A stretch of 64,000 bases of DNA. It comes from Candidatus Nomurabacteria bacterium RIFCSPHIGHO2_12_FULL_42_19 (GTDB lineage: Bacteria; Patescibacteriota; Minisyncoccia; Phycocordibacterales; UBA9973). The notes below the pieces were generated by a model. The model saw nothing but the letters and a program-made list of their open reading frames with translations, ran no database searches and was not told the DNA's origin. The DNA is taken from the NCBI GenBank assembly GCA_001786955.1, contig MFUM01000004.1:4457-68456 (forward strand). Reading direction: 5' to 3'. Made by a program: the position numbers and the translations under genes. Of this stretch, positions 3,139 to 63,330 are shown one piece after another (the first letter of the stretch is position 1; each line of letters begins with the position of its first letter).

Positions 3139-4338
3139 TTAGGATTTTAAATACCCTTTTAAAAATTCCTTCTTGAATTCAAAGAAGTTGTCGTCCAGGA
3201 TTGACTGCCGGATTTTTTTAACTAAATTAATAATGAAATACAAATTATGTATTGAAGCAAGAGTTGCGGCCAGTATTTCTTTACCATGAAAGAGATGGGC
3301 GAGGTAAGCGCGGGAATAGTTCGCGCATAAATAGCATTTACAATTCTCTTCAACCGCATTAAAGTCATTTTTATATTTAGCATTCATTATATTTATTTTC
3401 CCATTTTTGGTATAGAGTGAGCCATTGCGGGCATTGCGCGTCGGCGCAACGCAATCAAACAAATCCACGCCGTTTTCTATGCCCATAAACAAATCCTCCG
3501 GCTCGCCGATGCCGAGCAGATGCCGAGGCTTTTCTTCCGGCAATATTTCATTTACCCATCGGACCGCTGTCTGCATATCTTCCTTGGCAAAAGAGCCGCC
3601 GATACCAAAACCGTCAAAATCTAAACTCTTTAGAAAGTTTGCCGATTTTTTTCGGAGCGTTTCGTCTCTTCCGCCTTGCACAATACCGAACAATGCAATG
3701 TTGTTTTTTTTATTTAATTTATCATGTTCTTCTAAACTTCTTTTTGCCCAATTATGAGTTCGTTCCAACGCCTCTGTCTGATATCTAAAATCTTCCGCCG
3801 GGCTGGTGCACTCGTCAAAAGCAAAAATTATATCTGCGCCCAGGTTGTGCTGGATTTGGATTGATTTTTCCGGAGTGATGTAATGGATGCTGCCGTCCAA
3901 GTGCGATTTAAAAGAAACCCCGTCCTGTCCGATTTTAGCCAAACGAGGAGCACCAGAGTCATCAAAGCGTTCCGGAATCAACAAGGACGAATCGGTAATT
4001 TTTGTGATTTTAGAAACCTGCTTACCATAAGCTGCGCCCAGGGAAAAAACCTGAAAGCCGCCGGAATCGGTAATTATAGGGCTATTCCAATTCATAAATT
4101 TATGCAGACCGCCCGCTTTGGCTACCAACTCATCACCAGGCTGTAAATATAAATGATAGGTATTGGCTAAAATTACTTCAGCTCCCAGATCCCTAGCCTG
4201 CTCGGGGGTCAGAGCTTTCACGCTGGCTTTCGTGCCGACCGGCACAAAAGCCGGAGTCTGAATAACTCCATGCGCTGTAGTGATGACTCCCACCCTTCCT
4301 AAACAATTTTCCAATTTTTTCTCTATTTTGAAATGCAT
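3139..4338 (-). CDS. tgt: Queuine tRNA-ribosyltransferase (tRNA-guanine transglycosylase)
   Basis: 399 aa. Contains GVIQTPAFVPVGT, ITDSGGFQV, and a C-terminal zinc site CKCYLCANYSRAYLAHLF. Confidence 0.9.
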   Translation of the reverse strand: MHFKIEKKLENCLGRVGVITTAHGVIQTPAFVPVGTKASVKALTPEQARDLGAEVILANTYHLYLQPGDELVAKAGGLHKFMNWNSPIITDSGGFQVFSLGAAYGKQVSKITKITDSSLLIPERFDDSGAPRLAKIGQDGVSFKSHLDGSIHYITPEKSIQIQHNLGADIIFAFDECTSPAEDFRYQTEALERTHNWAKRSLEEHDKLNKKNNIALFGIVQGGRDETLRKKSANFLKSLDFDGFGIGGSFAKEDMQTAVRWVNEILPEEKPRHLLGIGEPEDLFMGIENGVDLFDCVAPTRNARNGSLYTKNGKINIMNAKYKNDFNAVEENCKCYLCANYSRAYLAHLFHGKEILAATLASIHNLYFIINLVKKIRQSILDDNFFEFKKEFLKGYLKS

Positions 4339-4420
4339 TGATTTTGCGAAATCACGTCACGCAAGTTAATTCTGATGAATTATGTCGTGTTCTCCTTTAA
4401 AACACGACCGGCGCGACGCT
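4336..4420 (-). promoter_or_regulatory. Conserved start-proximal element, instance 2 (before tgt)
   Basis: Minus sense reads GCGTCGCGCC...(nested hairpin)...TTGCGTGACGTGATTTCGCAAAATCA-ATG. The palindrome GATTTCGCAAAATC sits 1 nt before the ATG. Confidence 0.6.
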
Positions 4421-8398: not shown

Positions 8399-9214
8399 AT
8401 GTCTATTCAAATCACCACAGAGCAAATAAAAGGGCTCCGCGATATGACTGGCATTTCGGTAATGCAATGTAAGCGCGCCTTGGAAGAAGCCGAAGGCGAT
8501 ATAAAAAAAGCGCTGGCTATCTTAAAAAAAACAAGCTCGGATATTGCGCTTAAAAAAGTTAATCGTGAAGTTAAAGACGGAAAAGTTTGCATTAAAACAG
8601 GAAACCTGCCTCCTGCCCGCGCAGGCGGGGCGCAGGCAGGTAAAAAAGCAGTCTTGGTGTCTTTGCGCTGTGAGACCGATTTTGTCGCCAGAAATGAAGA
8701 CTTCGCTAAGCTGCTGGAAAATCTTGCGGAAAAAGCGATAAAAGTCGGAGTAGAAGAAATGAAAAAGGAGGCCAAAGACATGATTGATGCTATAATCCAG
8801 AAAACCGGAGAAAATATCCAGCTTGGCGACACATATGAAGTAAATGGAGGTATTTTGGGAAATTACGTGCATAATAATAAGACTGGAGTTATCGTAAGCT
8901 TGACAGGGGGTGATGCGGAACTTGCAAAAGATATAGCCATGCACATAACTGCCATGAAGCCGGAATATATTTCGCAAGACGAAATAACAGAAGATGCCAG
9001 AAAAATAATGAAAGAAATTTTCGAAAAAGAAATAGCCAGTATGGACAAGCCTGCGGAAATAAAAGAGAAAATGCTTCTCGGAAAAATGGCGGCCTATTTC
9101 AAAGAAAAAACCCTGCTTGACCAGGCATTCATAAAAAACGGGGAAGAAACAGTGGGCCAGCTCCTGGAAAAAGCCAAGGCAAAAATAAAAGAAGTAAAAG
9201 CTTGCTTAATATAA
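8399..9214 (+). CDS. tsf: Elongation factor Ts
   Basis: 271 aa. The UBA-like N-terminus reads ITTEQIKGLRDMTGISVMQCKRALEEAEGDIKKALAILKK. It carries the GC-rich insert PPARAGGAQAGKK. Confidence 0.9.
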   Translation: MSIQITTEQIKGLRDMTGISVMQCKRALEEAEGDIKKALAILKKTSSDIALKKVNREVKDGKVCIKTGNLPPARAGGAQAGKKAVLVSLRCETDFVARNEDFAKLLENLAEKAIKVGVEEMKKEAKDMIDAIIQKTGENIQLGDTYEVNGGILGNYVHNNKTGVIVSLTGGDAELAKDIAMHITAMKPEYISQDEITEDARKIMKEIFEKEIASMDKPAEIKEKMLLGKMAAYFKEKTLLDQAFIKNGEETVGQLLEKAKAKIKEVKACLI

Positions 9215-14213: not shown

Positions 14214-15950
14214 TTATTTACGATTATTTTTAATATTCTCTTTTTTCTTATTCAATTCATTTATTTCCTTCAAAATCTTTTTACCTATTTCCTCATTAGA
14301 CGTTTGTCTTAATTCCAGCATTTTCTTGCTTAACTCTTCATTAATATTTTCTTCTTCAAGATTCAGAAACATCTCCGTTATGCTATTTTCTAATTTTTCG
14401 TTGTTCGTATAAAATACTTCTGCTTCGAATATAAGATCTTGTTTGACAACTTCATACTTTTTATAAACTTCTCCTAATTTTTCAAAAATTGCCTTAAAGT
14501 CTATAGCGGACGTTGGACGTCCGAGTTCCGGACGTCCAACGTCCGCTAAGCTTTGCTGCCAAAGAGCGATGCCCAAGAGTTTTCGCTCTATGTAATCTTT
14601 TCTGTACATCTTGGTTAAGCTCTCTCCCGCTTCCTTAATTTCTTCTTTTTCATATCTGAACTCTTGCTCAATTTTTTTTAAATCATCCTGTAATGCATTT
14701 TGAGATATGCCCGAAAGGTCGCTAATCTTTTTTATAAAATGCATTTTTTCTATCGAGCTTTCGAGCGCATTTACAAACGGTAATATTGTGCCTTTTATTT
14801 CCCTACCGGCCTTACGGGTGTCATTGCTATAATTTTTTAAAACTTTACTTAAAAGAAATTCTATAACGTGTTTAGAGTTTTTAATGGCTTCGCGCCAGGC
14901 ATCCGAACCCGTCTTCCCAATCAAATCCGCCGGATCGACACCATCAGGCATATCCACCACTTTTACATCCATCCCCAAAGAAAGAGCGATTTTGCCGGCA
15001 CGAATGGTCGCACTTGCCCCCGCCTTATCAGCATCAAAAGCAAGCACTAGATTCTCCGATAGGCGCCGCACCAGTCCTAAATTGCTTACAACATTTTCTT
15101 TTGAAACAGTAGAATCCGATAAAGCTGTGCCGGATGTCGCGATTGTGTTTTTATATCCCGCTTGATGCGATAATATCAAATCCATCTGACCTTCCACTAA
15201 AACAGAGAAGTTGTTCTTGCGGATGGAATCCTTAGCCTTATCAATTCCGTAAAGCACCGCATTTTTGCTGAAAATGGGCGTCTCGGGAGAGTTTAAATAT
15301 TTCGGTTCTCCTTCCCCTGTAATTCTTCCCGAAAACGCTATAACTCTTCCGCTTGAATCATTCATGGGAAACATAATTCTATTGCGAAAACGATCATAGT
15401 ATCCTTTCTCCGTTTTTTTAATTAGCCCGGCACGCTCTATTTCTAAATCACTAAAACCTGTCAACTTCAAGTGTTCATAAAGCGTCCGCCAGTCATCCTT
15501 CGCAAATCCAATACCAAAATCTTTGATTGTTTTTTCGCTCAGTCCTCGAGATTTTAAATATTCTATTTGTTTCGTTTCTAAGTTAGAAATAAAGAACTTC
15601 TCTGCTTTCTCCATCGCCCTGTATAATTTTTCTTTTTCGCTTTCCGCTTCTTTCATTTCTTTGCTGTAAGCCTTAAGAGGCACTCCGGCCCTATCTGCAA
15701 GAAGTTTTAATGCGCCTTTAAAATCAAGCCCTTCAAATTCCTCGACAAAGGTAAAAATATCACCCGACGCCCCGCAGCCAAAACAGTAATAAGTGCCGCG
15801 GTCGGGAGAAATGAAAAACGAAGGGGTTTTTTCATTGTGGAACGGGCATTTCGCCTTCAGGTTTACGCCTGTCTTCTCGAGCTTTATATAGGAAGAGACT
15901 ACTTCTTCAATCGATAGCCTCTCCTTAATTTTTTGTACGGGGGAATTCAT
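14214..15950 (-). CDS. dnaG: DNA primase
   Basis: 578 aa. CHC2 zinc finger [30 protein letters not shown], followed by a Toprim domain. It sits upstream of rpoD in the classic operon arrangement. Confidence 0.95.
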
Positions 15951-25145: not shown

Positions 25146-27167
25146 ATGAAGGAATCTAAAAACAAATTGCAAGGTATTATTTCCATCTCTTCAAAAGGCA
25201 CAGGCTATGTGGCAACCGGAGAAGTGAAGAATAAGGGCCAGGACCCGGAAATTGATTTCCAGCATTTAAATACCGCCCTGCACGGAGATATGGTAGAGAT
25301 AATCTTGCACCCGAAAGGTAAAAATCGCCAAACTGCTGAAGTTTCAAAAATAATATCGCGCGCAAAAATGAATTTCGCGGGAGTTCTGGAAGAAGAAAAC
25401 AAAATGTTCTTCCTGAAACCGGACGATACAAAAATGTATACAGATATTCTAATCCCAACCAAGTTTTTAAATAATGCGAAAGTTGGACAAAAGGTTTTTG
25501 TGGAAATAATTTCATGGAAAGATCCCCACAAGGCTCCGGAAGGAAAAGTAATAAAAGTTTTAGGCCGTCCGGGAGACAATGATACTGAAATGGAAAGTAT
25601 TGCGATAGAAAAAGGCTTTGATGCGAAACTTCCGCATAAAGTGGAAGAAGAAGCAAGGAAAATAAAGCAAAACGGCATTAAAGAAACCGACTATGCCGGA
25701 CGCAGAGATTTTCGCAAAACCCTGACCTTCACTATTGACCCCTCGGATGCGAAAGATTTTGATGATGCGATATCTTTCAGATTCCTCCCCTCCTTAAATA
25801 AGGAGGGGGCAGGGGGTGGTAATTCAAAAGACCACCCCGCCTCCGGCACCCCTCCTAAAAAAGGAGGGGAAGAGCAATATGAAGTCGGCATACACATCGC
25901 CGATGTCTCGCATTATGTAAAAATCGGCAGTGCTTTAGATGAAGAAGCGCGAGAAAGAGGAACTTCGGTATATTTGGTAGATAGGACGATACCAATGCTG
26001 CCGGAAACGCTTTCTAATGATTTGTGCTCTCTGGTGCCAAATAAAGACCGGCTTACTATGAGCGCAGTATTTATCATAGATAAAAATGCTCATGTAAAAA
26101 GCAAATGGTTCGGGCGCACGGTTATACATTCAAAAAAAAGATTTACTTACGAAGAAGCCGAGGAGTTAATAAAAAAATCCGCTGCGCCGTTCCATAAAGA
26201 ACTTTTTATCTTGAACAGCTTGGCAAAAAAATTAACCGGGGAAAGATTTGCGCAGGGCGCAATATCGCTTGACCAGGAAGAAGTAAAATTTGTTTTGGAT
26301 AAAAATGGAGTGCCGTTGAAAGTAATAAAAAAAGAGCGCGGCGATTCAAACAGGCTGATTGAGGAATTTATGCTCCTGGCAAATAAAAAAGTGGCGGAGG
26401 TCTTGTCTCCAAAAAATATAAAGGGTGTGAAAGATGAAGGCGTATCCATATACCGAGTGCACGATCTGCCGAGTAAGGAAAAAATGGCCGATCTGGCGTT
26501 TTTTTTGCGAAGTTTGGGACATAGAGTCTCCTTGCAGAACGGCCTTATCCCGACATATGAAATAAATAAGCTTCTAGAGAGTTTGGCCGGCAAAAATGAA
26601 GAAGATACGGTGCATCGCGCAGTTATCCGTTCTATGGCTAAAGCGCTTTATTCCACCAAAAATATCGGGCATTACGGTCTGGCTTTTCAATATTATACTC
26701 ACTTCACTTCCCCGATTAGGCGCTATCCGGACATCATGGTGCACAGACTTCTGGAAAAATTCCTCTCTGGCAAAAAAATAAAAAAGGAGGATTTAAAAGA
26801 GAAATTAATCGAATATGAAAAAATCGCCCTAAATGCATCCGAACAGGAAAAACGCGCCGCAGATGCCGAACGAGCTTCCATAAAATATAAACAAGTGGAA
26901 TATATGTCCAGATATCTGGGAAAAAGCTTCGACGGGGTAATCAGCGGGATAACCGAGTGGGGCATGTATGTGGAAGAACTAGAGACAAAATGCGAAGGTT
27001 TGGTGCGGGTACGTGATATGAATGACGATTTTTATATTTTCAATGAAAAAAAATTGGAATTAACCGGACAAAAAAAGAAAAAAAAGTACAGGCTCGGCGG
27101 CCGTGTCAAAATAAAAGTAAAATCGGTTGATTTGGAGAGAAAAACGATAGATTATATATTGACATGA
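25146..27167 (+). CDS. rnr: Ribonuclease R (RNB family 3'-5' exoribonuclease with a C-terminal S1 domain)
   Basis: RNB motifs DPSDAKDFDDAISF and HIADVSHYV, plus HYGLAFQYYTHFTSPIRRYPD. Start taken at 25146 (MKESKN...) because the ORF track's 24954 overlaps rpsP. It carries an 88-nt GC-rich in-frame element. Confidence 0.9.
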   Translation: MKESKNKLQGIISISSKGTGYVATGEVKNKGQDPEIDFQHLNTALHGDMVEIILHPKGKNRQTAEVSKIISRAKMNFAGVLEEENKMFFLKPDDTKMYTDILIPTKFLNNAKVGQKVFVEIISWKDPHKAPEGKVIKVLGRPGDNDTEMESIAIEKGFDAKLPHKVEEEARKIKQNGIKETDYAGRRDFRKTLTFTIDPSDAKDFDDAISFRFLPSLNKEGAGGGNSKDHPASGTPPKKGGEEQYEVGIHIADVSHYVKIGSALDEEARERGTSVYLVDRTIPMLPETLSNDLCSLVPNKDRLTMSAVFIIDKNAHVKSKWFGRTVIHSKKRFTYEEAEELIKKSAAPFHKELFILNSLAKKLTGERFAQGAISLDQEEVKFVLDKNGVPLKVIKKERGDSNRLIEEFMLLANKKVAEVLSPKNIKGVKDEGVSIYRVHDLPSKEKMADLAFFLRSLGHRVSLQNGLIPTYEINKLLESLAGKNEEDTVHRAVIRSMAKALYSTKNIGHYGLAFQYYTHFTSPIRRYPDIMVHRLLEKFLSGKKIKKEDLKEKLIEYEKIALNASEQEKRAADAERASIKYKQVEYMSRYLGKSFDGVISGITEWGMYVEELETKCEGLVRVRDMNDDFYIFNEKKLELTGQKKKKKYRLGGRVKIKVKSVDLERKTIDYILT

Positions 27168-29100: not shown

Positions 29101-31374
29101 TTATTTCGCAATTTGAGTAGCTTCTTCGAATTTTACCGAGAGAAGTTTGGAAGCTTCGTTGGAGCCGATGGTGACGCCGTAAAGAATTCCGGCTCTGGAC
29201 ATCGTTTCGCGGTTGTGGGTAACGACGATAAGCTGGGATTGCTTGGAGAGCTTCTCCAGCATATCCCCGTATTTTCGGGAGTTTGCTTCATCCAGCGCCG
29301 CATCCGTTTCGTCCAGCACCAAAAAAGGCGGCGGATTGACTTGCGACATAGCGAAAAGAAGGGCAATGGAAGTAAGCGACCTTTCTCCCCCGGAGAAAGC
29401 GTGAAGTTCCTTGACTTTCTTGCGCGGCAAAGAGACATTGATTTCTATTCCTTTTTCAATAACGATGTTCTCATCATCTTCTGATTCCCCCATTTCATCG
29501 TCATCTTCATTGATTTCATCAACTTTTTTCTTCTTAGTTTCAATAATAGAAATAGATCCGTGTCCGCCGCCAAACATTAATGAAAAGAATTCTTGAAACT
29601 CTACGTTGATTTTTTTGACACCTTCCTTGAATTCCGTATCTATTTTTTCCTTCAAATCAGCAATAAGTATAACCAGAGATTCAATGCTTTTGGATAAATC
29701 TTCCATTTCTTTCGTTAAAAATTGATCCCGCCCGGAAACTTCTTTATATTCCTTTATCAATTCCGCTCCGTTGCCCAGGCCCGTATCTTCTAATTTTATT
29801 TTTATGCGCTCAATTTTTTTCTTTTGGTCTTCTTGGTTATGCAATTCCCCGTTGTTTTCAATTTTATAGTCCTTATAAGAAAAAACTTCCCGTCCAATCA
29901 GGATTTCCCCTTCTTTTATCTCATTTTCAAAAGATTCGGCCCTATTTTTCAAATTCCCTTCTTTGATAGCCACAAGTTCCAGAGCGGAAGACAATTCTTG
30001 TTGTCTGACTCTCCAGGCAAATTTCTCCCGTTCAAGATCGCGTAAGGCCTCCATTTCCTTGTTTATTTCTTGTTTCAGTATCTCTATTGATTTGGCAATT
30101 TCTTTTTCTTTGCTTTCAATCCCTTTCATTTCTTCCAAGATTGCCTGCTGGGTTTTTTTTAGTTTTTCAATTTCTAAATTGTGGCTGGATTCATCCTTGT
30201 CATTTTGAGAGAATTTTTTCAAAATATTCTTAATACTCTCCAAAACGGGCCTAATCTCCTCAATACTTTCTTTTAAAAAAGCCAAATCTATAGAATTATT
30301 TATCTCACTGATTATGGCTTTGATTTCTTCCTGTGAAATTTCTATAAATAGGGATTTCTGTTCTTTCCTGCGTTCTTCCATTTCAACCATTCCCTCTATC
30401 CGCCCAAGCTTGCGTTCTATTTCACTTTTTACTCCGCGAAGGGAGTTGAGGCCTTCCTCAATTTTTCTCAATTCTTCTATTTTACCCCCACCCATCCTCC
30501 CCCTTATTAAGGGGGAGGTGTCAGAATGACGGAGGGGGTCGTTGTTTTCAACAATAGAAATTTTACCAGTTACATTTTTAAGTTCATTTGAAAGCTTGTT
30601 CCTTTCAGATGATAAATCGGCTTTCTCTTTCTCCAAAAAGATGCTTTCTTTCTTCAGATATTCCCCGTAAAGAGCCGTCAGCTCTGTTTGCATTTCTTTT
30701 GTTTTTTCAAATTTTTCCACCTGTTTCTTGAGAAAGTTAAGATGTGGGGCATTTTCCCGCCGCATTAAGGAAACCTCTTTCATGTTTTCATTCGTCCGTT
30801 CAAGTTTTCTCTCGCTTTCTTTTATCTTATATTGATAAATTTTAAGTCCCAAGGCATCTTCTACCATTTCTTTTTTTTCTCTTGCATTGGCGCTCAAAAT
30901 CCTGTCTGTCTCGCCCTGAGAAATAATGTGATGCCCGGAAGAACCTATGTTGACCGAGGCCAGCAAATTGTGAATATCCTTCAGTCTGACTTCTGTGCCA
31001 TTTAAAATATATTTATTCAACCCATCGGAAAAAACCTCGCGGGAAATTGAAATAACATCATAATTCAAATTAATATTCTCTCCCCCGTCATTGGAAAGCT
31101 TGAAAATTTTGTCGGAATTATTGAAATAGATGGTGACGGACGCCCGTGAGGCTTTTGGCAGATTTTTAGAACCTTTAAAAATGAGATCCGAACCGCCTTT
31201 TCCGCGCATGGATTTCATGGATTGTTCGCCCAAAACAAAGCGGATGGATTCCACCACATTGGATTTTCCGGATCCGTTCGGGCCGACAATGGAAACAATG
31301 GGATTTTCAAACTCTAAAACAGTTTTTTGGGCAAAAGACTTAAAACCATTTAGCTGGAGTGTTTTGAGCCGCAT
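29101..31374 (-). CDS. smc: SMC-family ATPase (chromosome segregation protein with a short coiled-coil)
   Basis: 757 aa. Walker A GPNGSGKSN at the N-terminus. C-terminal LSGGERSLTSIALLFA and LVLDETDAALD. Shorter than the canonical SMC (about 1180 aa). Confidence 0.8.
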   Translation of the reverse strand: MRLKTLQLNGFKSFAQKTVLEFENPIVSIVGPNGSGKSNVVESIRFVLGEQSMKSMRGKGGSDLIFKGSKNLPKASRASVTIYFNNSDKIFKLSNDGGENINLNYDVISISREVFSDGLNKYILNGTEVRLKDIHNLLASVNIGSSGHHIISQGETDRILSANAREKKEMVEDALGLKIYQYKIKESERKLERTNENMKEVSLMRRENAPHLNFLKKQVEKFEKTKEMQTELTALYGEYLKKESIFLEKEKADLSSERNKLSNELKNVTGKISIVENNDPLRHSDTSPLIRGRMGGGKIEELRKIEEGLNSLRGVKSEIERKLGRIEGMVEMEERRKEQKSLFIEISQEEIKAIISEINNSIDLAFLKESIEEIRPVLESIKNILKKFSQNDKDESSHNLEIEKLKKTQQAILEEMKGIESKEKEIAKSIEILKQEINKEMEALRDLEREKFAWRVRQQELSSALELVAIKEGNLKNRAESFENEIKEGEILIGREVFSYKDYKIENNGELHNQEDQKKKIERIKIKLEDTGLGNGAELIKEYKEVSGRDQFLTKEMEDLSKSIESLVILIADLKEKIDTEFKEGVKKINVEFQEFFSLMFGGGHGSISIIETKKKKVDEINEDDDEMGESEDDENIVIEKGIEINVSLPRKKVKELHAFSGGERSLTSIALLFAMSQVNPPPFLVLDETDAALDEANSRKYGDMLEKLSKQSQLIVVTHNRETMSRAGILYGVTIGSNEASKLLSVKFEEATQIAK

Positions 31375-31381
31375 ATTATTT

Positions 31382-32110
31382 TTAATCCAGCCAATTTTTT
31401 ATTTTTAATGCGGCTTCAGCCGCTTTCTGTTCGGCTTCTTGTTTTGATTTGCCCTTGCCCTCGGCAATCAAGTCCGGTCCGAAATAAATACCCACGGTAA
31501 AATGCTTGTCGTGGTCCGGGCCCGACTGATGCAAAACCTTATAGGCGGGAGTAACCAACACGAATTCCTGCGCTTTTTCCTGCACCAGGGACTTTGCATC
31601 GCGCCAAAGTTTTTTATTTACTATTTCTTCTGTCTTGGGCAGAAGAGTTTCAGCCACGAATTTATCTGCCGCATCATATCCTCTATCCAGATACATAGCT
31701 CCGACAAATGCCTCATAAGTATTCGCCAAAATATATTGCCTGGCTTTGCCGTAATCTTTGGCTTCGCCTTTGGACAAAAGTAAATAGTCGTTCATTCCTA
31801 TTTTTAAAGCAATTTCAGAAATAATAACGGCATTCACAAGAGCGGAACGAAGCGCGGTCAATTCTCCTTCCGTATAGTGCGGATATTTTTTATAAAGAAA
31901 ATCGGTGACAATGAGCTCGAGCACGGCATCGCCTAAAAATTCCAAACGTTCATTGTGGGAAAGAGAAGCCGCCGGATTTTCGTTTATATAAGAACGGTGC
32001 GTAAAAGCCTGTTTAAGCAAATCCTTATTCTTAAAAATTACTTTTATTTTTTTCTCAAAATTTGAAAAATGTGTCATGTTATCTGTTTGTTTTTTGTGAA
32101 ATAATTTCAA
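31382..32110 (-). CDS. rnc: Ribonuclease III
   Basis: [12 protein letters not shown] signature with a C-terminal dsRBD. Confidence 0.95.
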
Positions 32111-33041
32111 CCGCCTTGCTAATTAACGGGATAATGTCGTTATAAATACGGAGTTCCGGGATTGCGGAAAGCTCAAACCATCTTGCCCCATCCAGTCCGC
32201 CGGATTTTTCCAAGGCAAGTTCTCTGTATTCGCTCTTGGCTAAAAAATAAACCACCTTTTTCAGGCTTTTTCCTTTTTCTGGATGCGTTGCCACATATTC
32301 GTTTTCCCCCAATTTTTCTTCCATTTTAATATCAAGCCCGATTTCTTCCTTTATTTCTCTGATTGTCGCTTCTTCTTCGTTTTCTCCCTTTTCAATACTG
32401 CCCTTGGAAATAGTCCAATAGCCGAAAACATCATGCACTAATGCAAAAAAGACTTTGTTATTCTTTTTCGCATAAACAAGCGCTCCGCCTTTTTTCTCAA
32501 CTGGCAATTTTGCAGTATCCGGCACTTCTTCGTGTTTTTTCTTTCTGCTGACTTGTTCTTTTCCGGGCTCGCCTATTTCTTTATAAACCGCGCCTAAGAC
32601 GCCGTTGACGAATTTACCGGAATTCTCTCCGCCGAAAGTTTTTGCCAGTTCTATCGCTTCATTGATAGCCACTTTCGGAGGCACTTCCTTCCTGTCGCCA
32701 AAAAGGAGCTCCGTTAGGCCGATTCTCAGAATATTCCTGTCAACAACAGAAATCTTATCTATCGGCCAATCAGGCGCGGCCTTTTCTATGATTTCGTCAA
32801 TCATTGCGCGCTTCTTTAACACTTTATCCATAAGCGAGAACACAAAAACATCATCCTCCAACCCTGGGGCAAATTCTTTTAAATTTCTTTTGAGAATATT
32901 ATTTATCTCTCCGGAAATATCGGAATTGCTGATTTTCTTATCATCGGACCCGCCTGCGCTCGACTGTGGCGAGGCGAGCAGGAAATCCCACTCAAAAAGC
33001 GTCTGAAGAACTATTGATCTGGAAAGGTGCCTATTTGCCAT
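32079..33041 (-). CDS. nusB: NusB-like antitermination domain fused to a C-terminal NUDIX hydrolase domain
   Basis: 320 aa. The N-terminus [20 protein letters not shown]...[11 protein letters not shown] is NusB-like. The C-terminus carries a Nudix box [23 protein letters not shown]. Confidence 0.75.
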
Positions 33042-33074: not shown

Positions 33075-33133
33075 CACCTCACCCCCGACCCCTCTCCTTA
33101 TCAAGGAGAGGGGTGCCAAAGGCGGGGTGAGGT
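33075..33133. repeat. Intergenic copy of the GC-rich hairpin element family (CCTCTCC-TTATCAA-GGAGAGG core with an outer inverted repeat CACCTCACCCC / GGGGTGAGGT)
   Basis: Same core as the in-frame copies in pheS, rnr and smc. It also sits in terminator position after rpmF. Confidence 0.6.
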
Positions 33134-33357
33134 TATTTCTCCGCTTTTTTTGCTTTTGCTTTCTTTTGTCTCTTTTCCGTCTTTTTGACTAAATCCAAAA
33201 TCTTTTTCCCGCGGTAAAAACCGCAAGATGAGCACACTGTATGGCGTCTTTTTAGGGCTTTACAATTTTCACACTTGGAAAAACTCGTAGTTTCCAAGGC
33301 GTGGTGCGAGCGACGGTTTTTTGTATGCGATTTTGTATGCCTCATTCGTACTACCAT
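33133..33357 (-). CDS. rpmF: 50S ribosomal protein L32
   Basis: 74 aa. Contains HHALETTSFSKCENCKALKRRHTVCSSCGFY, a C4 zinc ribbon typical of L32. Confidence 0.85.
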   Translation of the reverse strand: MVVRMRHTKSHTKNRRSHHALETTSFSKCENCKALKRRHTVCSSCGFYRGKKILDLVKKTEKRQKKAKAKKAEK

Positions 33358-33432: not shown

Positions 33433-35208
33433 ATGGAAAAGACTGAAAAACTAGGCAATTTAAGGCATACTCTGGCTCACCTGCTCGCATCGGCCATCGG
33501 AGAGATTTATAAATTTGATAAAATCAAACTTACCCTCGGTCCGGCCATAGATAATGGCTTTTATTATGATATTGATTTTTGCGGCGAAAAAATGACCGAT
33601 GCGGATTTGAAAAAAATTGAAGATAAAATGCGGAAAAATTTGCCTAAATGGACAGAATGGGAACATAAAGAAATAAGCAAGGACGAAGCGTTAGAATTTT
33701 TCAAAAACGAATACAAGGCGGAATTAATAAATGAAATCGCCCTACGCGGAGAGAAAATTACTACTTATACTTGCGGAGGATTTACTGATTTATGCCGTGG
33801 TGGACACTTGGCGCATCCGTCTAAAGAAATAGATCCGGATTCTTTCAAGCTGGACCGCGTGGCCGGCGCTTACTGGCGAGGAGATGAGAAGAACAAAATG
33901 CTCACCCGAATTTACGGATTGGCTTTTGAGACCAAAGAAGAACTGGATGCATATTTAACACAAAGAGAGGAAGCAGAAAAAAGAGACCATCGAAAGCTCG
34001 GACAAGAGCTTGATATTTTTATTTTTGATGACGATGTCGGCCCGGGACTTCCGCTTTGGTTGCCAAATGGCGCCGTGATTATTGAAGAACTGGAAAAATT
34101 AGCAAAAGAAACGGAAGAAAAAGCCGGATATGTTCGTGTGCGCACTCCCCATATTGCCAAAGAATCAATGTATAAAAAAAGCGGGCATTTGCCTTATTAT
34201 GCAGACAGCATGTATTCGCCGATGGACTGTGAAGGAGAAAATTACTATCTCAAAGCGATGAATTGCCCGCACCATCATAAAATTTTTGCCGCGCGGCCAA
34301 AAAGCTATCGTGATTTGCCCCTGCGGCTTGCCGAATATGGCACAGTCTATCGTTATGAAAAATCCGGAGAACTTTTCGGGCTTATGCGCGTACGCTCCCT
34401 CTCAATGAATGACGCGCATATTTATTGTTCGGAAAAACAATTCGCGAATGAATTTCGCGCAGTTAATGAAATGTATCTTAAATATTTTAAAATTTTCGGA
34501 GTTGAAAAGTATATAATGCGATTCTCTACCCATGATCCGAAAGAACTTGGAAAAAAATATGTGGACGAACCGGAGCTCTGGCTGAAAACGGAAAAAATGG
34601 TCCGTGATGTTCTGATTGAATCAAAAATTCCATATGTTGAGGTGCCGAATGAAGCGGCTTTTTATGGGCCAAAAATAGATGTGCAAGTCTGGAGTGCTAT
34701 TGGGAAAGAGTTTACTCTGGCCACCAACCAGGTTGATTTTGCAGTGCCTAAGCGTTTTGATTTAACATTCACAAATAAAGAAGGCAAGGCAGAAACTCCG
34801 CTTTGTATCCATCGTGCGCCGCTCGGCACCCATGAAAGATTTATCGGCTTCTTGATTGAGCATTATGCCGGCATCTTCCCTCTTTGGCTCTCGCCAGTGC
34901 AGGTAAAAGTAATTCCTGTCCGCACAAATCATAATGAATATGCGAAGCAGATTTTTGAATTATTAAAAGAAAATAACATCCGTGCGGAATTGGATGATAG
35001 CGATGAAAACCTCGGCACAAAAGTCCGCGATGCAAAAAATAAAAAAATGCCTTACTGGATAGTCATCGGCGACAAAGAAATAGAAGCAAAAAAAGTAACT
35101 CTTGAATCCCGCCTGCCTGCGCAGGCAGGCGACGCTGGACAATTAGGACAAATTTCAAAAGAAGAACTCGTCGCAAAACTTGTGGCCGAGGTCAAAATTA
35201 AAATATAA
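33433..35208 (+). CDS. thrS: Threonyl-tRNA synthetase (short form lacking the N-terminal TGS domain)
   Basis: HTLAHLLASAI (SAD motif), class II motifs, and an anticodon-binding C-terminus. The ORF track starts at 33403; the ATG at 33433 (MEKTEK...) is an alternative. It carries the palindromic insert GCCTGCCTGCGCAGGCAGGC. Confidence 0.88.
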   Translation: MEKTEKLGNLRHTLAHLLASAIGEIYKFDKIKLTLGPAIDNGFYYDIDFCGEKMTDADLKKIEDKMRKNLPKWTEWEHKEISKDEALEFFKNEYKAELINEIALRGEKITTYTCGGFTDLCRGGHLAHPSKEIDPDSFKLDRVAGAYWRGDEKNKMLTRIYGLAFETKEELDAYLTQREEAEKRDHRKLGQELDIFIFDDDVGPGLPLWLPNGAVIIEELEKLAKETEEKAGYVRVRTPHIAKESMYKKSGHLPYYADSMYSPMDCEGENYYLKAMNCPHHHKIFAARPKSYRDLPLRLAEYGTVYRYEKSGELFGLMRVRSLSMNDAHIYCSEKQFANEFRAVNEMYLKYFKIFGVEKYIMRFSTHDPKELGKKYVDEPELWLKTEKMVRDVLIESKIPYVEVPNEAAFYGPKIDVQVWSAIGKEFTLATNQVDFAVPKRFDLTFTNKEGKAETPLCIHRAPLGTHERFIGFLIEHYAGIFPLWLSPVQVKVIPVRTNHNEYAKQIFELLKENNIRAELDDSDENLGTKVRDAKNKKMPYWIVIGDKEIEAKKVTLESRLPAQAGDAGQLGQISKEELVAKLVAEVKIKI

Positions 35209-38412: not shown

Positions 38413-40269
38413 TTACCGCACTTGCCAACCATTATTCTCCTTGATTTTATTGGTTATTTGAGTCATAACTGCATTTATTTCCGCATCTGTAAGAGTCCTA
38501 TCAAAAGACTGGAAAACTACCCTAAAAGCATAAGAGATTTTATCGTCCTTTTTAAACTCATCAAAGAGTTCCGGGCCACGAATTGCAAGACTTCCGGCAT
38601 TATTTTTTATAATTTTTTCTACATCTTTACTTTTAACTCCCTCCGGCACCCAGACGGCAATATCGCGTGCGATAAAAGGAAACAAGGACCACATCTTAAA
38701 AGCTCCGCCTGTGTGCTTTTGCGAACGGTGACGTTGCGAAGCAGGATATTCCTGAGCAAAAGCATCAGGCGAGGCTGATTTACAAAATTCTTCAAGACTC
38801 ATTTCTTTTACTTCTTTTTTATTTCCATAAGCCACATTCATTTCTTCCCCGCTCTTTTTAAACACCGTTCCAATTTCAAAAATTTTTATTTCGTCCATCC
38901 CCAACAAAGGCACGTTGAGTTGGTTTAATTTCAAACTTTCCTTCAGTCCGTCAGTCAGATTCGTCCGCAAAAATTTTTTATCCGAAGCGCTCTGCATCAC
39001 TTCCACTTCCCCACTATTACAAAAAGTATAAGTCATTACTTCACTATATCCTTCGCCGAGCAATTTATTTCTCGCCCAGGAAATCTTCGCATAAGTTTCA
39101 TTTACTTTTGTTTTAAAATTAATTTTTGGTATTTTTCCTTTTACTTTGTCATAGCCAATAATCCTTCCGATTTCTTCTGCCATATCTTCCTCAATTACTA
39201 AATCAAGCCGCATCGGTGGCACGGTGATTACGTATTCTTCTCCCCCTGCTAAGGGGGAGTGCCCATCGGGCGAGGGGGTCTTTGTATATTCAAAGTTATA
39301 TCTTTTCAAAATATCTTCCACTTGAGACACAGAAATGTCCAAACCAAGAATTTTTGAAATTTTTTCCACCGAGAAAGAAAGCTTTCTGATCTCCTGTTTT
39401 TGGGGATAGACATCGACAATGTTTTCAAAAATAGCTTCCGGACACATTTCTAAAATAAGCGCCGATAATTCCAGCATAGCGTGCGGGCCAAGTTCCGGAG
39501 ATAAATCGTTTTCAAAGCGCTTGCGTGCGTCCGTAAATATATTCAAAGCCTGCGCGGTTTTTCTTACGGAAGTTGGATTAAAATTAGCAACTTCCAGAAT
39601 TATATCTTTTGTATTATTATCTACTTCCGCAATTTTCCCGCCCTTGATGCCAGCAATGGCTAAGACATTCTTATCGTCCGAAATGACCATATTTGAAGAT
39701 TTGAACTTTATTTCTTTATTGTCCAGGGTGGTCATCTCCTCGCCGTCTTTACCGTTTCGGACAATTATGTCGCCCTGTATTTTATCCAAATCAAAAGCAT
39801 GTGCGGGCTGACCGCAATCAAACATCACAATATTCGCCGCATCTACCACATTATTTATGCTTCTCTGCCCTATTGACTCCAGATGCTTTATGACCCATTC
39901 CGGACTGGTGCCAATTTTAATATTCTTTACAATTCTCCCCATATATCTTCTACATTTATCTGATTGGACATCAATTTTTAATTCTGCCTGCCCCGCCGGA
40001 GCCTTGGGCGCAGGCGGGGGAATTTTATACTTCGGAGCAGGATCAACATACTTTATATTTAAAAGTGAAGCGAGTTCACGCGCCACGCCCTGGTGGCTAA
40101 GTAAATCATGCGCGCGGTTTGGCAAGATTTTCAAATCAAAAATATTATCATCCCCTTTTTTCTCTAAACTCTCAACTTCACAAAGATGGTAATTAAAAAC
40201 ATCCACAAATTTTTCTGCATCAGGTGCTTCCGGTATATACCATTTGAGCCAATTGTAAGAAATCAACAT
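38413..40269 (-). CDS. pheT: Phenylalanyl-tRNA synthetase beta subunit (shortened)
   Basis: 618 aa. N-terminal MLISYNWLKWYIPE, plus B3/4 and B5 cores. Two GC-rich in-frame inserts are present. Confidence 0.9.
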   Translation of the reverse strand: MLISYNWLKWYIPEAPDAEKFVDVFNYHLCEVESLEKKGDDNIFDLKILPNRAHDLLSHQGVARELASLLNIKYVDPAPKYKIPPPAPKAPAGQAELKIDVQSDKCRRYMGRIVKNIKIGTSPEWVIKHLESIGQRSINNVVDAANIVMFDCGQPAHAFDLDKIQGDIIVRNGKDGEEMTTLDNKEIKFKSSNMVISDDKNVLAIAGIKGGKIAEVDNNTKDIILEVANFNPTSVRKTAQALNIFTDARKRFENDLSPELGPHAMLELSALILEMCPEAIFENIVDVYPQKQEIRKLSFSVEKISKILGLDISVSQVEDILKRYNFEYTKTPSPDGHSPLAGGEEYVITVPPMRLDLVIEEDMAEEIGRIIGYDKVKGKIPKINFKTKVNETYAKISWARNKLLGEGYSEVMTYTFCNSGEVEVMQSASDKKFLRTNLTDGLKESLKLNQLNVPLLGMDEIKIFEIGTVFKKSGEEMNVAYGNKKEVKEMSLEEFCKSASPDAFAQEYPASQRHRSQKHTGGAFKMWSLFPFIARDIAVWVPEGVKSKDVEKIIKNNAGSLAIRGPELFDEFKKDDKISYAFRVVFQSFDRTLTDAEINAVMTQITNKIKENNGWQVR

Positions 40270-40280
40270 AAATTAAGTTA

Positions 40281-41072
40281 TTAAAACTGATTGAGGCGTA
40301 AATCTCCCTGATAAAAAAGTCTAACATCCGGAATACCCCATTTAATCATAGCAATACGGTCCAATCCTCCGCCGAAAGCAAAACCTTGGTATTTTTTAGG
40401 GTCCAAGCCGCAATTTTTGAGTACATTTGGGTGTAAAACACCTGAACCCATCATCTCAAGCCACTTCCCTTTGAACTTGGCGAAAACTTCCAGAGATGGT
40501 TCGGTAAAAGGGAAAAAACTGGGGCGAAATTCTACCTCCACATCATCACTCAACATTTTTTTGTAAAAATGGGTTAATACGCCCTTCAAATCAGCAAGGG
40601 AAACATTTTCTCCCACCATTGCTCCGTCTATCTGATAAAATTGCATTTCGTGCGTTGCATCCGTAGCTTCGTTGCGGAAAACTTTTCCGATGGAAATAAA
40701 AGCGGCTGGCAATCTGCCGTCTTTGCCCGCTTGCTCAATCGCGCGGGCGGTTACGGTCGTCGTATGTGTTCGCAACACAGATTTTGAATTACCACCCCCT
40801 GCCCCCTCCTTATCAAGGCGGGGAGGATTCTTTTCTCCTCCTGCCTGAGGAGGAGTGCCCGAAGGACGAGGTGGTTCTTTTATCCAAAATGTATCCTGCA
40901 TATCCAGCGCCGGATGGTCTTTCGAAAAATTCAAGGCGTAAAAGTTATACCAGTCGCTCTCCAGCTCCGGCCCGGTCGCGATTTCAAAACCAAGCTCCGA
41001 AAAAGCCCGATAAGCCTCCTCGGCTAACAGAGAAAGCGGATGTATTGTGCCCTTTTTTATGTCTTCGTTCAT
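40281..41072 (-). CDS. pheS: Phenylalanyl-tRNA synthetase alpha subunit (lacks the N-terminal coiled-coil)
   Basis: 263 aa. Class II core FRPSFFPFTEPS and GFAFGGGLDRIAMIKWGIPDVRLF. Carries an 87-nt GC-rich in-frame element. Confidence 0.9.
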   Translation of the reverse strand: MNEDIKKGTIHPLSLLAEEAYRAFSELGFEIATGPELESDWYNFYALNFSKDHPALDMQDTFWIKEPPRPSGTPPQAGGEKNPPRLDKEGAGGGNSKSVLRTHTTTVTARAIEQAGKDGRLPAAFISIGKVFRNEATDATHEMQFYQIDGAMVGENVSLADLKGVLTHFYKKMLSDDVEVEFRPSFFPFTEPSLEVFAKFKGKWLEMMGSGVLHPNVLKNCGLDPKKYQGFAFGGGLDRIAMIKWGIPDVRLFYQGDLRLNQF

Positions 41073-44256: not shown

Positions 44257-44366
44257 ATTTTAACACCTTAAGAGACTTTCTCCATCTGCATTATATAACC
44301 AAATTATGTGTCAAATAAACGGTAAAATGCTTTCTTTTTATTGGAAATAATGTAAATTAGAGACAA

Positions 44367-44425
44367 GGAGGATTCGCATAGCGGTCTAGTGCCGAAGGAA
44401 ATATAGACTTGGAAAGCGCTTTTTT
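44367..44425 (+). pseudogene. Degenerate copy of the 5' half of tRNA-Ser(GGA), a tRNA fragment
   Basis: GGAGGATTCGCATAGCGGTCTAGTGCC...CTTGGAAAGCGC aligns with tRNA positions 1 to about 45 of the gene at 44452. It has a 13-nt insertion and no 3' half. Confidence 0.55.
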
Positions 44426-44451
44426 GTTTGTTAGTATTTGAATTGAAAAAT

Positions 44452-44536
44452 GGAGGGTTCGCATAGCGGTCTAGTGCGCACGCTTGGAAAGCGTGTGTGG
44501 AGCAATCCACCAGGAGTTCGAATCTCCTACCCTCCG
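44452..44536 (+). tRNA. tRNA-Ser (anticodon GGA), type II with a long variable arm
   Basis: Acceptor GGAGGGT/ACCCTCC. Anticodon stem CACGC/GCGTG with loop TTGGAAA. Variable stem GTGGA/TCCAC. T-arm AGGAG-TTCGAAT-CTCCT. G73. Confidence 0.85.
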
Positions 44537-44561
44537 CCTTCGATTGCCGAAAATAATTTAT

Positions 44562-62907: not shown

Positions 62908-63273
62908 TTAGGCTCTTTTCTTTTTTAAACTTTTAACTGCTTTGTTTGTAATTCCTTTCCACTCGCTTTTTAATTTTTTGGCTAGAGCTTTGATGTCTTT
63001 CTCATGTAATTTATACTGCTTGGCATAATTTTCGGTTACAACATCTACCGCTTTGTGATAAACAGGAGCGCTGACTTTTTTAGCCTTTTTAACTTCACTT
63101 ATTACCTCTTTCTTTATTTTATCCATCAAGACTTTCGCTTTCTTTTGATGCGCCTTAGCCTTAGGACCAAATAAATAATACGCTCCGGCACCAAGCGCCG
63201 CTACTCCCGCTCCCACTGCCGCCATTTCACCCCCCGACATCCCCTTTTTTTTATTTGTATTATTTTTTTTCAT
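62908..63273 (-). CDS. Hypothetical Lys/Ala-rich protein with a Gly/Ala-rich TM-like segment
   Basis: 121 aa ORF, preceded by the conserved start-proximal element. Confidence 0.5.
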   Translation of the reverse strand: MKKNNTNKKKGMSGGEMAAVGAGVAALGAGAYYLFGPKAKAHQKKAKVLMDKIKKEVISEVKKAKKVSAPVYHKAVDVVTENYAKQYKLHEKDIKALAKKLKSEWKGITNKAVKSLKKKRA

Positions 63274-63330
63274 TTGATTTGATTTTGCGAAATCATGCCG
63301 CGCAACCGTCCGTTTTAGCGTAGCGTTAAT
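63271..63330 (-). promoter_or_regulatory. Conserved start-proximal element, instance 3 (palindrome GATTTCGCAAAATC 7 nt before the ATG; upstream hairpin degenerate)
   Basis: Minus sense reads TTGCGCGGCATGATTTCGCAAAATCAAATCAA-ATG. Confidence 0.5.

Follow-up and report, generated by a model that had tools for sequence, protein, structure and literature searches.

In-frame palindromic repeats are known from Rickettsia and a few others; we found no description of them for Nomurabacteria. RPEs, the in-frame palindromic repeats of Rickettsia housekeeping genes (Ogata et al. 2000, reviewed in PMC10969869 and PMC3733652), come in several coexisting families, and the peptide that they add is conserved and placed where the protein fold allows it. 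The element described here also adds a conserved peptide and coexists with other families, its sites may be compatible with the fold as well, and like RPEs it is a palindromic family that lies in frame in many unrelated housekeeping genes of a small, gene-dense genome. The two are set apart by description, since RPEs are ~100-150 bp long and restricted to Rickettsia and its relatives, whereas here a ~35-nt unit and ~90-nt doublets, both below the length reported for RPE-1, are found in a CPR host. Furthermore, RPE-4 and RPE-6 carry a CGTC tag (PMC3733652) that the Nomurabacteria element lacks, and the core motif of the latter spans phyla, unlike RPEs.

Intragenic REPs tagged with GTAG or CGTC (Di Nocera et al. 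2013, PMC3733652), for example in Opitutus terrae and R. conorii, encode 20-30 aa as monomers or dimers, including in uvrA and uvrB. They share with our element stems of 8-13 bp, loops of 3-5 nt, an occurrence as monomers and as head-to-head or tail-to-tail dimers, G-T pairs within stems, and copies that abut stop codons. In contrast, GTAG or CGTC accompanies just 2-6 of 112 copies of our element, which is the background level, and copies in CPR genomes are mostly intragenic, whereas intragenic copies are a minority among REPs. REPs are short imperfect palindromes of 20-40 nt with many copies, a description that our element fits. REPIN-RAYT systems (Bertels & Rainey 2011, PMC3116915; PMC3337134) likewise have an inverted doublet of a short palindrome as their unit, and a conserved RAYT-like Y1 gene with flanking inverted hairpins exists in the clade studied here. 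However, the hairpin of this gene is not our element, the window contains no RAYT gene, and the Nomurabacteria element shows no within-genome sequence clustering; in addition, REPs are mostly located outside genes, while the CPR copies lie mostly in ORFs.

In-frame MITEs such as the Coxiella QMITEs (PMC5896051; PMC10969869) are also small, non-autonomous repeats that fuse in frame with host ORFs, but they are marked by 15-30-bp terminal inverted repeats and by target-site duplications, and neither feature is evident here. PATE-like elements derived from IS200/IS605 have no TIR and no TSD, as here, and insert 3' of a fixed tetra- or pentanucleotide; no conserved motif of this kind emerged from the 112 copies. 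GC-rich hairpin modules are also found in the AT-rich, compact mitochondrial genomes of fungi, as the yeast var1 GC cluster and the Allomyces DHEs, where they are optional between strains. These mitochondrial modules sometimes lie in frame in protein genes; they are organellar and eukaryotic, and their sequences are probably unrelated to ours. A literature search of incomplete coverage, combining CPR, Patescibacteria or Nomurabacteria with REP, MITE, palindrome or in-frame inserts, returned nothing relevant.

The window analyzed here is a 64,000-nt stretch of a Nomurabacteria contig. Its repeat unit of ~35 nt comprises a hairpin made up of a pyrimidine arm and a purine arm, CCCCTCCTT-loop-AAGGAGGGG, followed by the G-run GGGGGTGGT. 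The unit takes the form of a single copy, a compact three-way junction, or an inverted doublet of ~90 nt (88-94 nt), the latter in either order (A then B in rnr, B then A in pheS). With profile HMMs made from 99 copies outside the window, five loci and nothing else are recovered within it, namely rnr, pheS, pheT, smc and the 3' end of rpmF. A sequence-only reading of this DNA had listed the same five, and all the hairpins it quoted are present, at 25787-25808, 25813-25838, 25849-25869, 30496-18, 33088-33114 and 39240-59. The features are as follows.

25167..27167, plus strand: host gene rnr (RNase R), 666-aa product identical to P0001
25784..25829, plus strand: rnr module A, hairpin CCCCTCCTT-AAAT-AAGGAGGGG, CA, G-run GGGGGTGGT and an AT-rich spacer; encodes LPSLNKEGAGGGNSK; holds the 32-mer at 25798-25829; nhmmer match to module A at 25786-25824, E=1.7e-13
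25830..25871, plus strand: rnr module B, ACCACCCC, mini-hairpin GCC-TCC-GGC and hairpin CCCCTCCT-AAAAA-AGGAGGGG; encodes DHPASGTPPKKGGE; nhmmer match to module B at 25831-25869, E=1e-7
30485..30542, minus strand: diverged compact unit in smc, outer stem ACCCCC/GGGGGT around GTCA-TTC-TGAC and CCTCCCCCTT-AAT-AAGGGGGAGG; encodes DPLRHSDTSPLIRGRMGG; weak profile match, E=0.16
33076..33134, minus strand: compact single unit at the rpmF 3' end, outer stem ACCTCACCCC/GGGGTGAGGT around GCC-TTT-GGC and CCCCTCTCCTT-GAT-AAGGAGAGGGG
33133-33357, minus strand: rpmF gene, in whose stop codon the 3' unit begins
39237..39282, minus strand: module B alone in pheT, ACCCCCTCGCCC-GAT-GGGCAC, then CTCCCCCT-TAGC-AGGGGGAG; encodes KTPSPDGHSPLAGGE; profile match, E=0.024
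40281..41072, minus strand: host gene pheS, 263-aa product identical to P0121
40782..40834, minus strand: pheS module A, spacer, imperfect hairpin CCCCGCCTT-GAT-AAGGAGGGG and G-run; encodes KNPPRLDKEGAGGGNSK; holds the 32-mer at 40782-40813; nhmmer match to module A at 40787-40826, E=8e-13
40835..40875, minus strand: pheS module B (first in the gene), ACCACCTCGTCC-TTCG-GGCAC, then CTCCTCC-loop-GGAGGAG; encodes PPRPSGTPPQAGGE; nhmmer match to module B, E=2e-8

Module B corresponds to module A in reverse complement, with ~8 extra nt that form an additional mini-hairpin. Module A aligned over its full length to the reverse complement of B with a score of 45.5, compared with 35.5 for the control, and the A/B consensus alignment scored 38.5 against 19.6 +/- 3.8 for shuffles. 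The rnr and pheS inserts are therefore inverted doublets in opposite order, similar to REPINs, and both the A-B and B-A orders are present in many genomes. The window holds 17 perfect GC-rich hairpins (0.65 in shuffles), and folding z-scores are -6.5 for rnr, -4.8 for smc, -3.4 for pheT and -9.2 for the rpmF 3' unit (-9.2/-7.9), with only -2.0 for the degenerate pheS copy. A GC content of about 75% had been said to distinguish the elements from their AT-rich host; the stems do reach this value, but whole elements lie at 57-67% in a window of 41%, and neither a scan of GC content alone nor a strict GC filter picked them out. The rpmF copy, which had been called non-coding, is indeed untranslated, although its start lies within the stop codon of the gene. 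The B-only insert in pheT is near-identical to a B-only insert in the rnr gene of L003. As a whole, the 64 kb contain at least 13 in-frame palindromic inserts of several families, and the core enzymes carrying them include RNase R, PheRS, SMC, LigA, DnaG, ThrRS and EF-Ts. In-frame palindromic repeats have so far been treated mostly as a Rickettsia curiosity with scattered further cases, but in this CPR genome they are pervasive.

The rnr and pheS inserts share the 32-mer ATAAGGAGGGGGCAGGGGGTGGTAATTCAAAA, which occurs exactly twice in the window, at 25798-25829 on the plus strand and 40782-40813 on the minus strand, with no further match at up to three mismatches and none expected from shuffles. 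Both copies are in frame, as had been claimed, and in sense within long ORFs, which read ...LNKEGAGGGNSKD... in rnr and ...LDKEGAGGGNSKS... in pheS. The peptide given earlier for both proteins, NKEGAGGGNSK, is common to them from its second residue on (KEGAGGGNSK), the preceding residue being N in rnr and D in pheS. Their opposite orientation applies to the chromosome only, as relative to the coding strands the two copies agree in orientation and frame, and the pheS element starts at 40782 rather than at 40789. The sequence-only reading had further taken the shared 32-mer to imply recent mobility or gene conversion. On its own, this identity is weak evidence for recent movement because the core of the family is highly conserved and identical 32-mers occur even between unrelated genomes (17 of 2649 pairs). 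At unconstrained positions, copies within a genome are 49% identical and copies from different genomes 48% (permutation p=0.30). Within-genome homogenization was thus not found, and since copies of one genome are no more alike than copies of different genomes, nothing points to a recent burst or to concerted evolution.

In reference genomes, the core motif has 112 matches against ~0.3 expected by chance, mostly in Nomurabacteria/Paceibacterota. The same sequence of 40-95 nt is found in ~20 unrelated genes of more than 60 genomes from independent assemblies; these housekeeping genes include MnmA, UvrA, UvrB, TsaD, IF-2, GatA, AtpG and KsgA, and one more host gene was found in a metagenome. This recurrence bears directly on the idea that the inserts arose independently, by slippage or template switching, or through assembly errors, and do not form one repeat family. 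Several unrelated palindromes do sit at the same loops, so that some process may favor palindrome formation there, but the recurrence of one sequence in so many genes and genomes leaves this explanation essentially refuted. An assembly artifact in particular is ruled out because many assemblies made independently (NCBI, ENA, JGI and Logan) show the same inserts at the same sites. Approximately 60 of the 74 CPR copies lie inside ORFs of at least 150 aa, while in the non-CPR phyla most copies are extragenic. Viral contigs searched for the element gave no matches, and the Rfam covariance models yielded only tRNAs at the gathering threshold, with generic miRNA-hairpin noise below it.

The segments are insertions, as had been proposed, being absent from solved structures and from many aligned orthologs. 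In the RNB domain, the rnr insert is flanked by DFDDAISF and YEVGIHIAD, and the pheS insert is flanked by DMQDTFWIK and VLRTHTT. Against solved RNase R and PheRS chains, the alignment is interrupted exactly at these points, with 30-32 aa in place of 2-5 aa, and the inserts fall between conserved blocks of the solved homologs. Among orthologs at 75-85% identity, about half are missing the inserts. A short loop takes the place of the insert in 54 of 120 RNase R orthologs and in most of those of PheS, and the smc unit is missing from the smc orthologs of L001-L003. Empty-site DNA was found in L001. Where an insert is present, it appears as A only, B only, A and B, or a deletion remnant, and in other lineages the same loops hold a single module, the two together, or unrelated palindromes; at the PheS loop, these unrelated palindromes have stems of 20-21 bp. 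On a 120-tip tree, presence and absence changed at least 27 times, whereas shuffled labels gave 40 changes on average and never fewer than 31. The density of the element differs about four-fold between related genomes, and none is found in 22 kb of L001. Related MAGs are abundantly polymorphic for the presence of inserts, a comparison that had been suggested beforehand as a test. A search of metagenomes for a strain-level empty rnr allele gave no matches, a result that says nothing if the collection does not contain the population. No target-site duplication is visible at the rnr, smc and rpmF junctions; with an identity of only ~75% to the empty sites, the boundaries there are imprecise.

Gly/Pro-rich loops are added to the housekeeping enzymes, in line with the earlier claim, and these are predicted to be disordered. 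In an AlphaFold2 model of PheS of moderate quality (mean pLDDT 67), the insert lacks secondary structure and stays below a pLDDT of 50. Palindromic inserts account for much of the variation in length between CPR orthologs and should be masked in phylogenomic alignments; they also provide ready presence/absence markers for strain typing.

With a probability of roughly 0.68, we interpret the copies as a non-autonomous, REP/REPIN-like palindromic mini-element, akin to the Rickettsia RPEs, that spread in Nomurabacteria/Paceibacterota and is carried in the form of disordered loops. The element would have spread through these genomes, and because they are tiny and gene-dense, the surviving copies would be those at gene ends or in frame in permissive surface loops of housekeeping proteins. 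The copies would be read in the single frame that is free of stops and whose Gly/Pro/Ser/Lys peptide is hydrophilic, and would frequently be gained and lost at the same few tolerant loops. The elements are probably mobile now or were so recently. Extremely streamlined genomes carry such DNA too, with protein loops as its refuge.

One orientation and frame is used by 59 of the 68 in-ORF copies. Together with the preservation of the frame, this bias suggests that the element is retained in mRNA and translated into protein, and it may reflect selection on the peptide. The inserts might instead be intervening sequences, similar to introns or inteins, that are removed after transcription or translation and leave the mature proteins without them. 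Nothing direct speaks for this beyond the insertions for which the rRNA genes of CPR genomes are known. Against it, all in-ORF copies keep the frame and lack stops, and the frame bias is strong, neither of which would be needed in an excised sequence; moreover, the ~30 aa hold no catalytic residues and are far too small for an intein, and no Rfam family matches. We therefore consider removal highly improbable.

Conservation was measured on module B, since the loci had been found through module A and a test on the latter would be circular. Between orthologous copies, identity reaches 84% in module B, but 73% in the flanks and 48% at third codon positions. Within the stems, identity at codon positions 1, 2 and 3 is 92, 95 and 83%, unpaired positions show no codon pattern, and amino-acid changes are concentrated in the hairpin loops. 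The conservation is thus on the nucleotides of the hairpins and not on the peptide. A functional peptide module, in which a Gly/Pro-rich loop is selected as a flexible linker or as an interaction tag of several enzymes, would account for the one-frame bias and for the same peptide in many proteins. It is nevertheless very unlikely given the high conservation of third positions in stems and the location of the amino-acid changes; in addition, many orthologs dispense with the insert, for which disorder is predicted, and the copy at 33076-33134 is not translated at all.

Across 30 copies, 97.5% of stem cells are paired, compared with 48-65% when the partners are slid, and at one stem position a G-T wobble, which would pair in RNA but not in DNA, is present in 20 of the 30. 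Covariation adds little because only 2 of 19 stem pairs show compensatory changes, which are consistent with two subfamilies. Stem conservation beyond the neutral expectation and a core found across phyla would also fit a function for the host, in which the hairpins act as RNA or DNA, for instance by stabilizing mRNA against 3'-5' decay, by slowing ribosomes between protein domains, or by binding a conserved factor. The constraint on nucleotides rather than codons, the intact pairing with its wobble, the lack of within-genome homogenization, the conservation of the core in several phyla including cultured isolates, and the copy placed exactly at the 3' end of rpmF are all in favor of such a module. 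Yet about half of the close orthologs of essential genes do without inserts, which are freely gained and lost, related genomes differ widely in density down to the empty 22 kb of L001, unrelated palindromes replace the element at the same loops, true covariation is confined to the two pairs, and the rpmF 3' unit has no T-tail for termination. On balance, a benefit to the host seems unlikely compared with a mini-element carried in tolerant loops.

In each hairpin, a perfect AAGGAGG resembling the Shine-Dalgarno sequence is paired with an anti-SD-like CCTCCTT, and a core of 33-40 nt is common to CPR and Bacteroidota, Ignavibacteriota/Kapaibacteria, Desulfuromonadales and others. More speculatively, and in our estimate rather doubtfully, the unit may be no REP private to one lineage but belong to an unrecognized superfamily of untagged palindromes, defined by the pyrimidine/purine, SD-anti-SD-like hairpin and the G-run, that either moved between phyla or was kept by a common function involving, for example, the ribosomal anti-SD or another universal factor, and that became a routine building block of protein loops in CPR. 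The presence of the core motif across phyla raises testable questions as to how the elements move and why they are kept.

For the proposed mini-element, a mobilizing enzyme was sought by tblastn, blastp and a family HMM, and no Y1 transposase was found in the window. Near the 112 copies, a Y1 gene occurs only in L088, where it is flanked by a different repeat. No conserved flanking motif or end tag is present among the 112 copies, GTAG, CTAC, CGTC or GACG adjoins only 0-6 of them, equal to background, and the outer stems measure only 6-10 bp. The clade does have a conserved, apparently single-copy RAYT-like Y1 gene flanked by inverted hairpins. In L113, L114, L116 and also L002, these hairpins are TACGGAGGC-GTT/AAC-GCCTCCGTA, which is absent from the window, while the genes of L115 and L088 are flanked by other hairpins. 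The flanking hairpin differs from our element at every RAYT locus examined, and a link between the two was rejected on these grounds; element and enzyme are mismatched, the hairpin cognate to the RAYT-like gene being another one. No transposase adjoins the copies, and the resemblance of the element to the TIRYT TIR 'GGGGWSAS' (PMC3733652) is a possible lead.

Judged by its best protein matches, the window belongs to Candidatus Nomurabacteria bacterium GW2011_GWC2_41_8 or to a genome nearly identical to it. The 32-mer ATAAGGAGGGGGCAGGGGGTGGTAATTCAAAA occurs twice in the window, which has an overall GC content of 41%:

25798-25829, plus strand, in-frame and sense in the long open reading frame of rnr (RNase R ...SFRF-LPSLNKEGAGGGNSKDHPASGTPPKKGGE-EQYEVGIHIAD)
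40782-40813, minus strand, in-frame and sense in the long open reading frame of pheS (PheS ...FWIKE-PPRPSGTPPQAGGEKNPPRLDKEGAGGGNSK-SVLRTHTT)

No further match with up to three mismatches was found in the window, and shuffled sequences gave none. A scan for perfect GC-rich hairpins returned 17 in the window versus 0.65 in shuffles and recovered every hairpin quoted in the sequence-only reading. Profile HMMs built on 99 element copies from other genomes likewise detected all five loci of that reading (rnr, pheS, the 3' end of rpmF, pheT and, weakly, smc) and no others in the window. The observation is real and no artefact, with several details revised. The pheS element starts at 40782, whole-element GC is 57-67% instead of about 75%, and the copy after rpmF, described as non-coding, actually begins within the rpmF stop codon. 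The opposite orientation reported for the two 32-mers holds on the chromosome but not relative to the genes, where both point the same way.

The part common to the rnr and pheS inserts exceeds the 32-mer. Each insert consists of a module A (peptide pattern P-S/L-L-x-KEG-A/V-GGG) and a module B (P-x-SGTPP-xx-GGE), the order of the two being opposite in rnr and pheS. In module A, the hairpin CCCCTCCTT-loop-AAGGAGGGG is followed by 2 nt and the G-run GGGGGTGGT. Module B can be aligned over its full length to the reverse complement of module A, with a mini-hairpin of ~8 nt (GCC-loop-GGC) replacing the 2 nt; this makes the rnr insert an inverted doublet of a ~35-nt unit, and the pheS insert the same doublet in the other order. 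In these doublets, base pairing links the G-run of one unit to the C-run of its partner. At rpmF and smc the element is a single compact unit whose outer C-run/G-run stem closes a three-way junction (folding z = -9.2 and -4.8, respectively), and the pheT copy is module B alone.

Ortholog alignments bear out the claim that these segments are insertions. The alignments of RNase R to the solved chains 8cdu and 5xgu, and of PheRS alpha to 2rhq and 6p8t, are interrupted exactly at the insert, where 30-32 residues of the query stand against 2-5 in the solved chains. The site is a short loop (e.g. REV-NESE-YEVGIHIAD) in 54 of 120 RNase R orthologs of 74-85% identity; in the remainder it holds module A or B by itself, both modules, or an unrelated insert. 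PheS orthologs are mostly 235 aa long with a 4-residue loop at the site. Direct reading of the rnr site in three comparison loci gave an empty site (L001), A+B (L002) and B only (L003). Turnover is clearly high, and presence or absence varies among relatives, as had been proposed for checking: at least 27 changes are needed on a 120-tip neighbor-joining tree computed with the insert masked, a rough figure given the poor resolution of the tree, versus a mean of 40 and a minimum of 31 with shuffled labels. Some "empty" RNase R sites resemble deletion remnants (RIL-GGEVY). In the AlphaFold2 model of PheS, of moderate overall quality, residues 53-102, including the insert, score below 50 in pLDDT and lack secondary structure.

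In a collection of species-representative genomes, the core AAGGAGGGGGNNGGGGGTGGTAA gave 112 matches in 107 stretches, against ~0.3 expected. About two-thirds lie in Nomurabacteria/Paceibacterota/Patescibacteria MAGs; the full form that recurs in these genomes is a ~92-nt A-B doublet. The host genes form ~24 clusters, including RNase R, MnmA (two sites), UvrA, UvrB (two sites), TsaD, IF-2, PheT (two sites), GatA, ATP synthase gamma and KsgA. A single orientation and frame is used by 59 of the 68 copies that lie in open frames 150 aa or longer; antisense copies lie mostly just upstream of gene starts. The exact 32-mer was also found in one groundwater metagenome contig, in a different gene and the identical frame. 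Element density is ~0.8 sites per 10 kb in the window and ~0.2 in related loci fetched regardless of the element, and L001 has no site in 22 kb.

The other third of the core matches falls in Bacteroidales, Cytophagales (Spirosoma, Hymenobacter), Chitinophaga, Kapaibacteria/Ignavibacteria, Desulfuromonadales, Thioploca and others, cultured isolates included. Here, the common part is the hairpin and G-run only, and copies are mostly extragenic, some as inverted doublets; one copy is in-frame, in dapF of a Kapaibacterium (L008). The form CCCCCTCCTT-loop-AAGGAGGGGG-NN-GGGGGTGGTAA is present in Spirosoma, Hymenobacter and Geomobilimonas isolates (L047, L074, L062, L075, L085, L097, L103). Viral contigs contained no copy of the core.

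For a test of conservation we used module B, which lies outside the search pattern. Its identity between orthologous copies in rnr is 84%, compared with 73% for flanking coding DNA and 48% for third codon positions of the flanks. In a comparison of 29 copies from different genes, stem identity is 92/95/83% for codon positions 1/2/3, and no codon-like pattern is seen at positions that do not pair. Stem cells are paired in 97.5% of cases, versus 48-65% with slid partners. Together, these results indicate that the hairpin nucleotides are preserved, not the peptide. Compensatory changes occur in only 2 of 19 stem pairs, which fits two subfamilies. Such preservation would also fit the main rival explanation, a hairpin useful to the host as RNA or DNA, which we regard as unlikely given the turnover at the rnr site. 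We favor, at a probability of roughly 0.7, a non-autonomous palindromic repeat, resembling REPs and Rickettsia palindromic elements, that persists where protein loops tolerate it.

The identity of the two 32-mers had been taken to imply recent mobility or gene conversion, for which it speaks only weakly. At unconstrained positions, copies within a genome are 49.3% alike and copies between genomes 47.8% (permutation p=0.30), and 17 of 2649 between-genome pairs have identical 32-mers. A metagenome search found no strain-level empty rnr allele, a result that is uninformative if the population is absent from the collection.

A search for a mobilizing enzyme led to a Y1 (IS200-like) transposase homolog in L002, above the Pfam threshold. 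These RAYT-like homologs (~210 aa, 74-87% identity) are widespread in Nomurabacteria/Paceibacterota and about as conserved as housekeeping genes; one source labels the gene RayT. In L113, L114 and L116, and also in L002, it is bracketed, REPtron-like, by inverted copies of TACGGAGGC-GTT/AAC-GCCTCCGTA, and in L115 and L088 by other hairpins:

L113, 1958-1976 and 2638-2658: flanks of the RAYT-like gene
L116, 1956-1978 and 2640-2666: flanks of the RAYT-like gene
L114: flanks of the RAYT-like gene
L002, 15035-15772: RAYT-like gene
L088, 3425-4933: RAYT-like gene flanked by the hairpin repeat TTCCCCTAAGC-TGG-GCTTAGGGGAA, four copies, one of them within the transposase frame itself, apparently in-frame

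The window has only a 33-nt gap between rnr/PGA_cap and smc, the place that the gene occupies in L002 and L116. No RAYT-like gene was found in the window or, except in L088, near the 112 element copies. The arrangement is that of classic REP-RAYT systems, but the cognate hairpin differs from the element, and the search tied no enzyme to the element.

The element shares the monomer, head-to-head and tail-to-tail organization of REPs/REPINs (PMC3733652, PMC3116915). It carries neither a GTAG nor a CGTC tag, which places it outside the REP superfamilies so tagged, and because the cognate flank differs it has no demonstrable partner in a REPIN-RAYT pair. Like Rickettsia palindromic elements, it occurs in-frame in many housekeeping genes (PMC10969869), and it behaves like the REPs that Di Nocera et al. 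described within genes, uvrA and uvrB among them, where monomers and dimers encode 20-30 aa (PMC3733652). It lacks the hallmarks of MITEs, and Rfam holds no matching family. We found no papers linking CPR/Patescibacteria with such elements, which, with incomplete literature coverage, only suggests that the element is not yet described for this group. Its interest lies in its pervasiveness in CPR core genes, in the question of its mobilizer and in a core of ~35 nt common to CPR and several other phyla.

Further in-frame palindromes and inserts of other kinds were found in the window and, at the PheS loop, in other Nomurabacteria:

8605-8641 (tsf), 35110-35131 (thrS), 39978-40027 (pheT) and 49557-49593 (prepilin peptidase A24 gene): second GC-rich palindrome family, CCTGCCTGCGC...GCGCAGGCAGG
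~45564-45650 and 46212-46295: two copies of a ~80-nt palindromic element in ligA (44819-47014, minus strand)
14504-14548: 45-nt palindrome with a perfect 20-bp stem, TAGCGGACGTTGGACGTCCG-AGTTC-CGGACGTCCAACGTCCGCTA, in dnaG (14214-15950, minus strand)
32949-32981: GC-rich insert of 10-11 aa in a nusB-NUDIX fusion (32079-33041, minus strand)
L111, 3001-3780: PheS-loop palindrome GAGGATGCAGAAAAATTTTG...
L112, 3001-3774: PheS-loop palindrome ACGGAAGCCCGAGAAGAATTC...

The second family encodes peptides ending mostly in ...AQAG (...PARAGGAQAG, LPAQAG, PAPKAPAGQAE, SASAGWAQAG), and its copy in thrS adds exactly 18 nt to the sequence found in the L001 and L003 orthologs. The ligA copies are 91% identical over 64 nt, with an outer stem of ~19 bp and a deltaG of ~-55 kcal/mol; they encode HE(F/I)SSRLTLPxVxGGTYATQK, and one splits the Pfam adenylation-domain match. 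The nusB insert, weak in hairpin character, is missing from the L001 and L003 orthologs. The PheS-loop palindromes (70-75 nt, 20-21-bp outer stems, inner hairpins) are unrelated to the element; this one loop has thus served three families or more. Taken together, these cases make in-frame palindromic inserts a general feature of these genomes.

Two other repeats were observed in the window. A 33-nt stretch at 44360-44392, 85 nt upstream of tRNA-Ser(GGA) (44452-44538), matches the 5' part of that tRNA (44445-44477) at 88% identity; ARAGORN and Rfam predict no further tRNA at this place, and the stretch may be a partial tRNA duplication. A direct repeat of ~46 nt with a TTGATTTTGCGAAATCACGTCRCGCAA core occurs in three copies (412-457, 4319-4364 and 63260-63305) at or near gene starts, and may represent a shared promoter- or operator-like motif.
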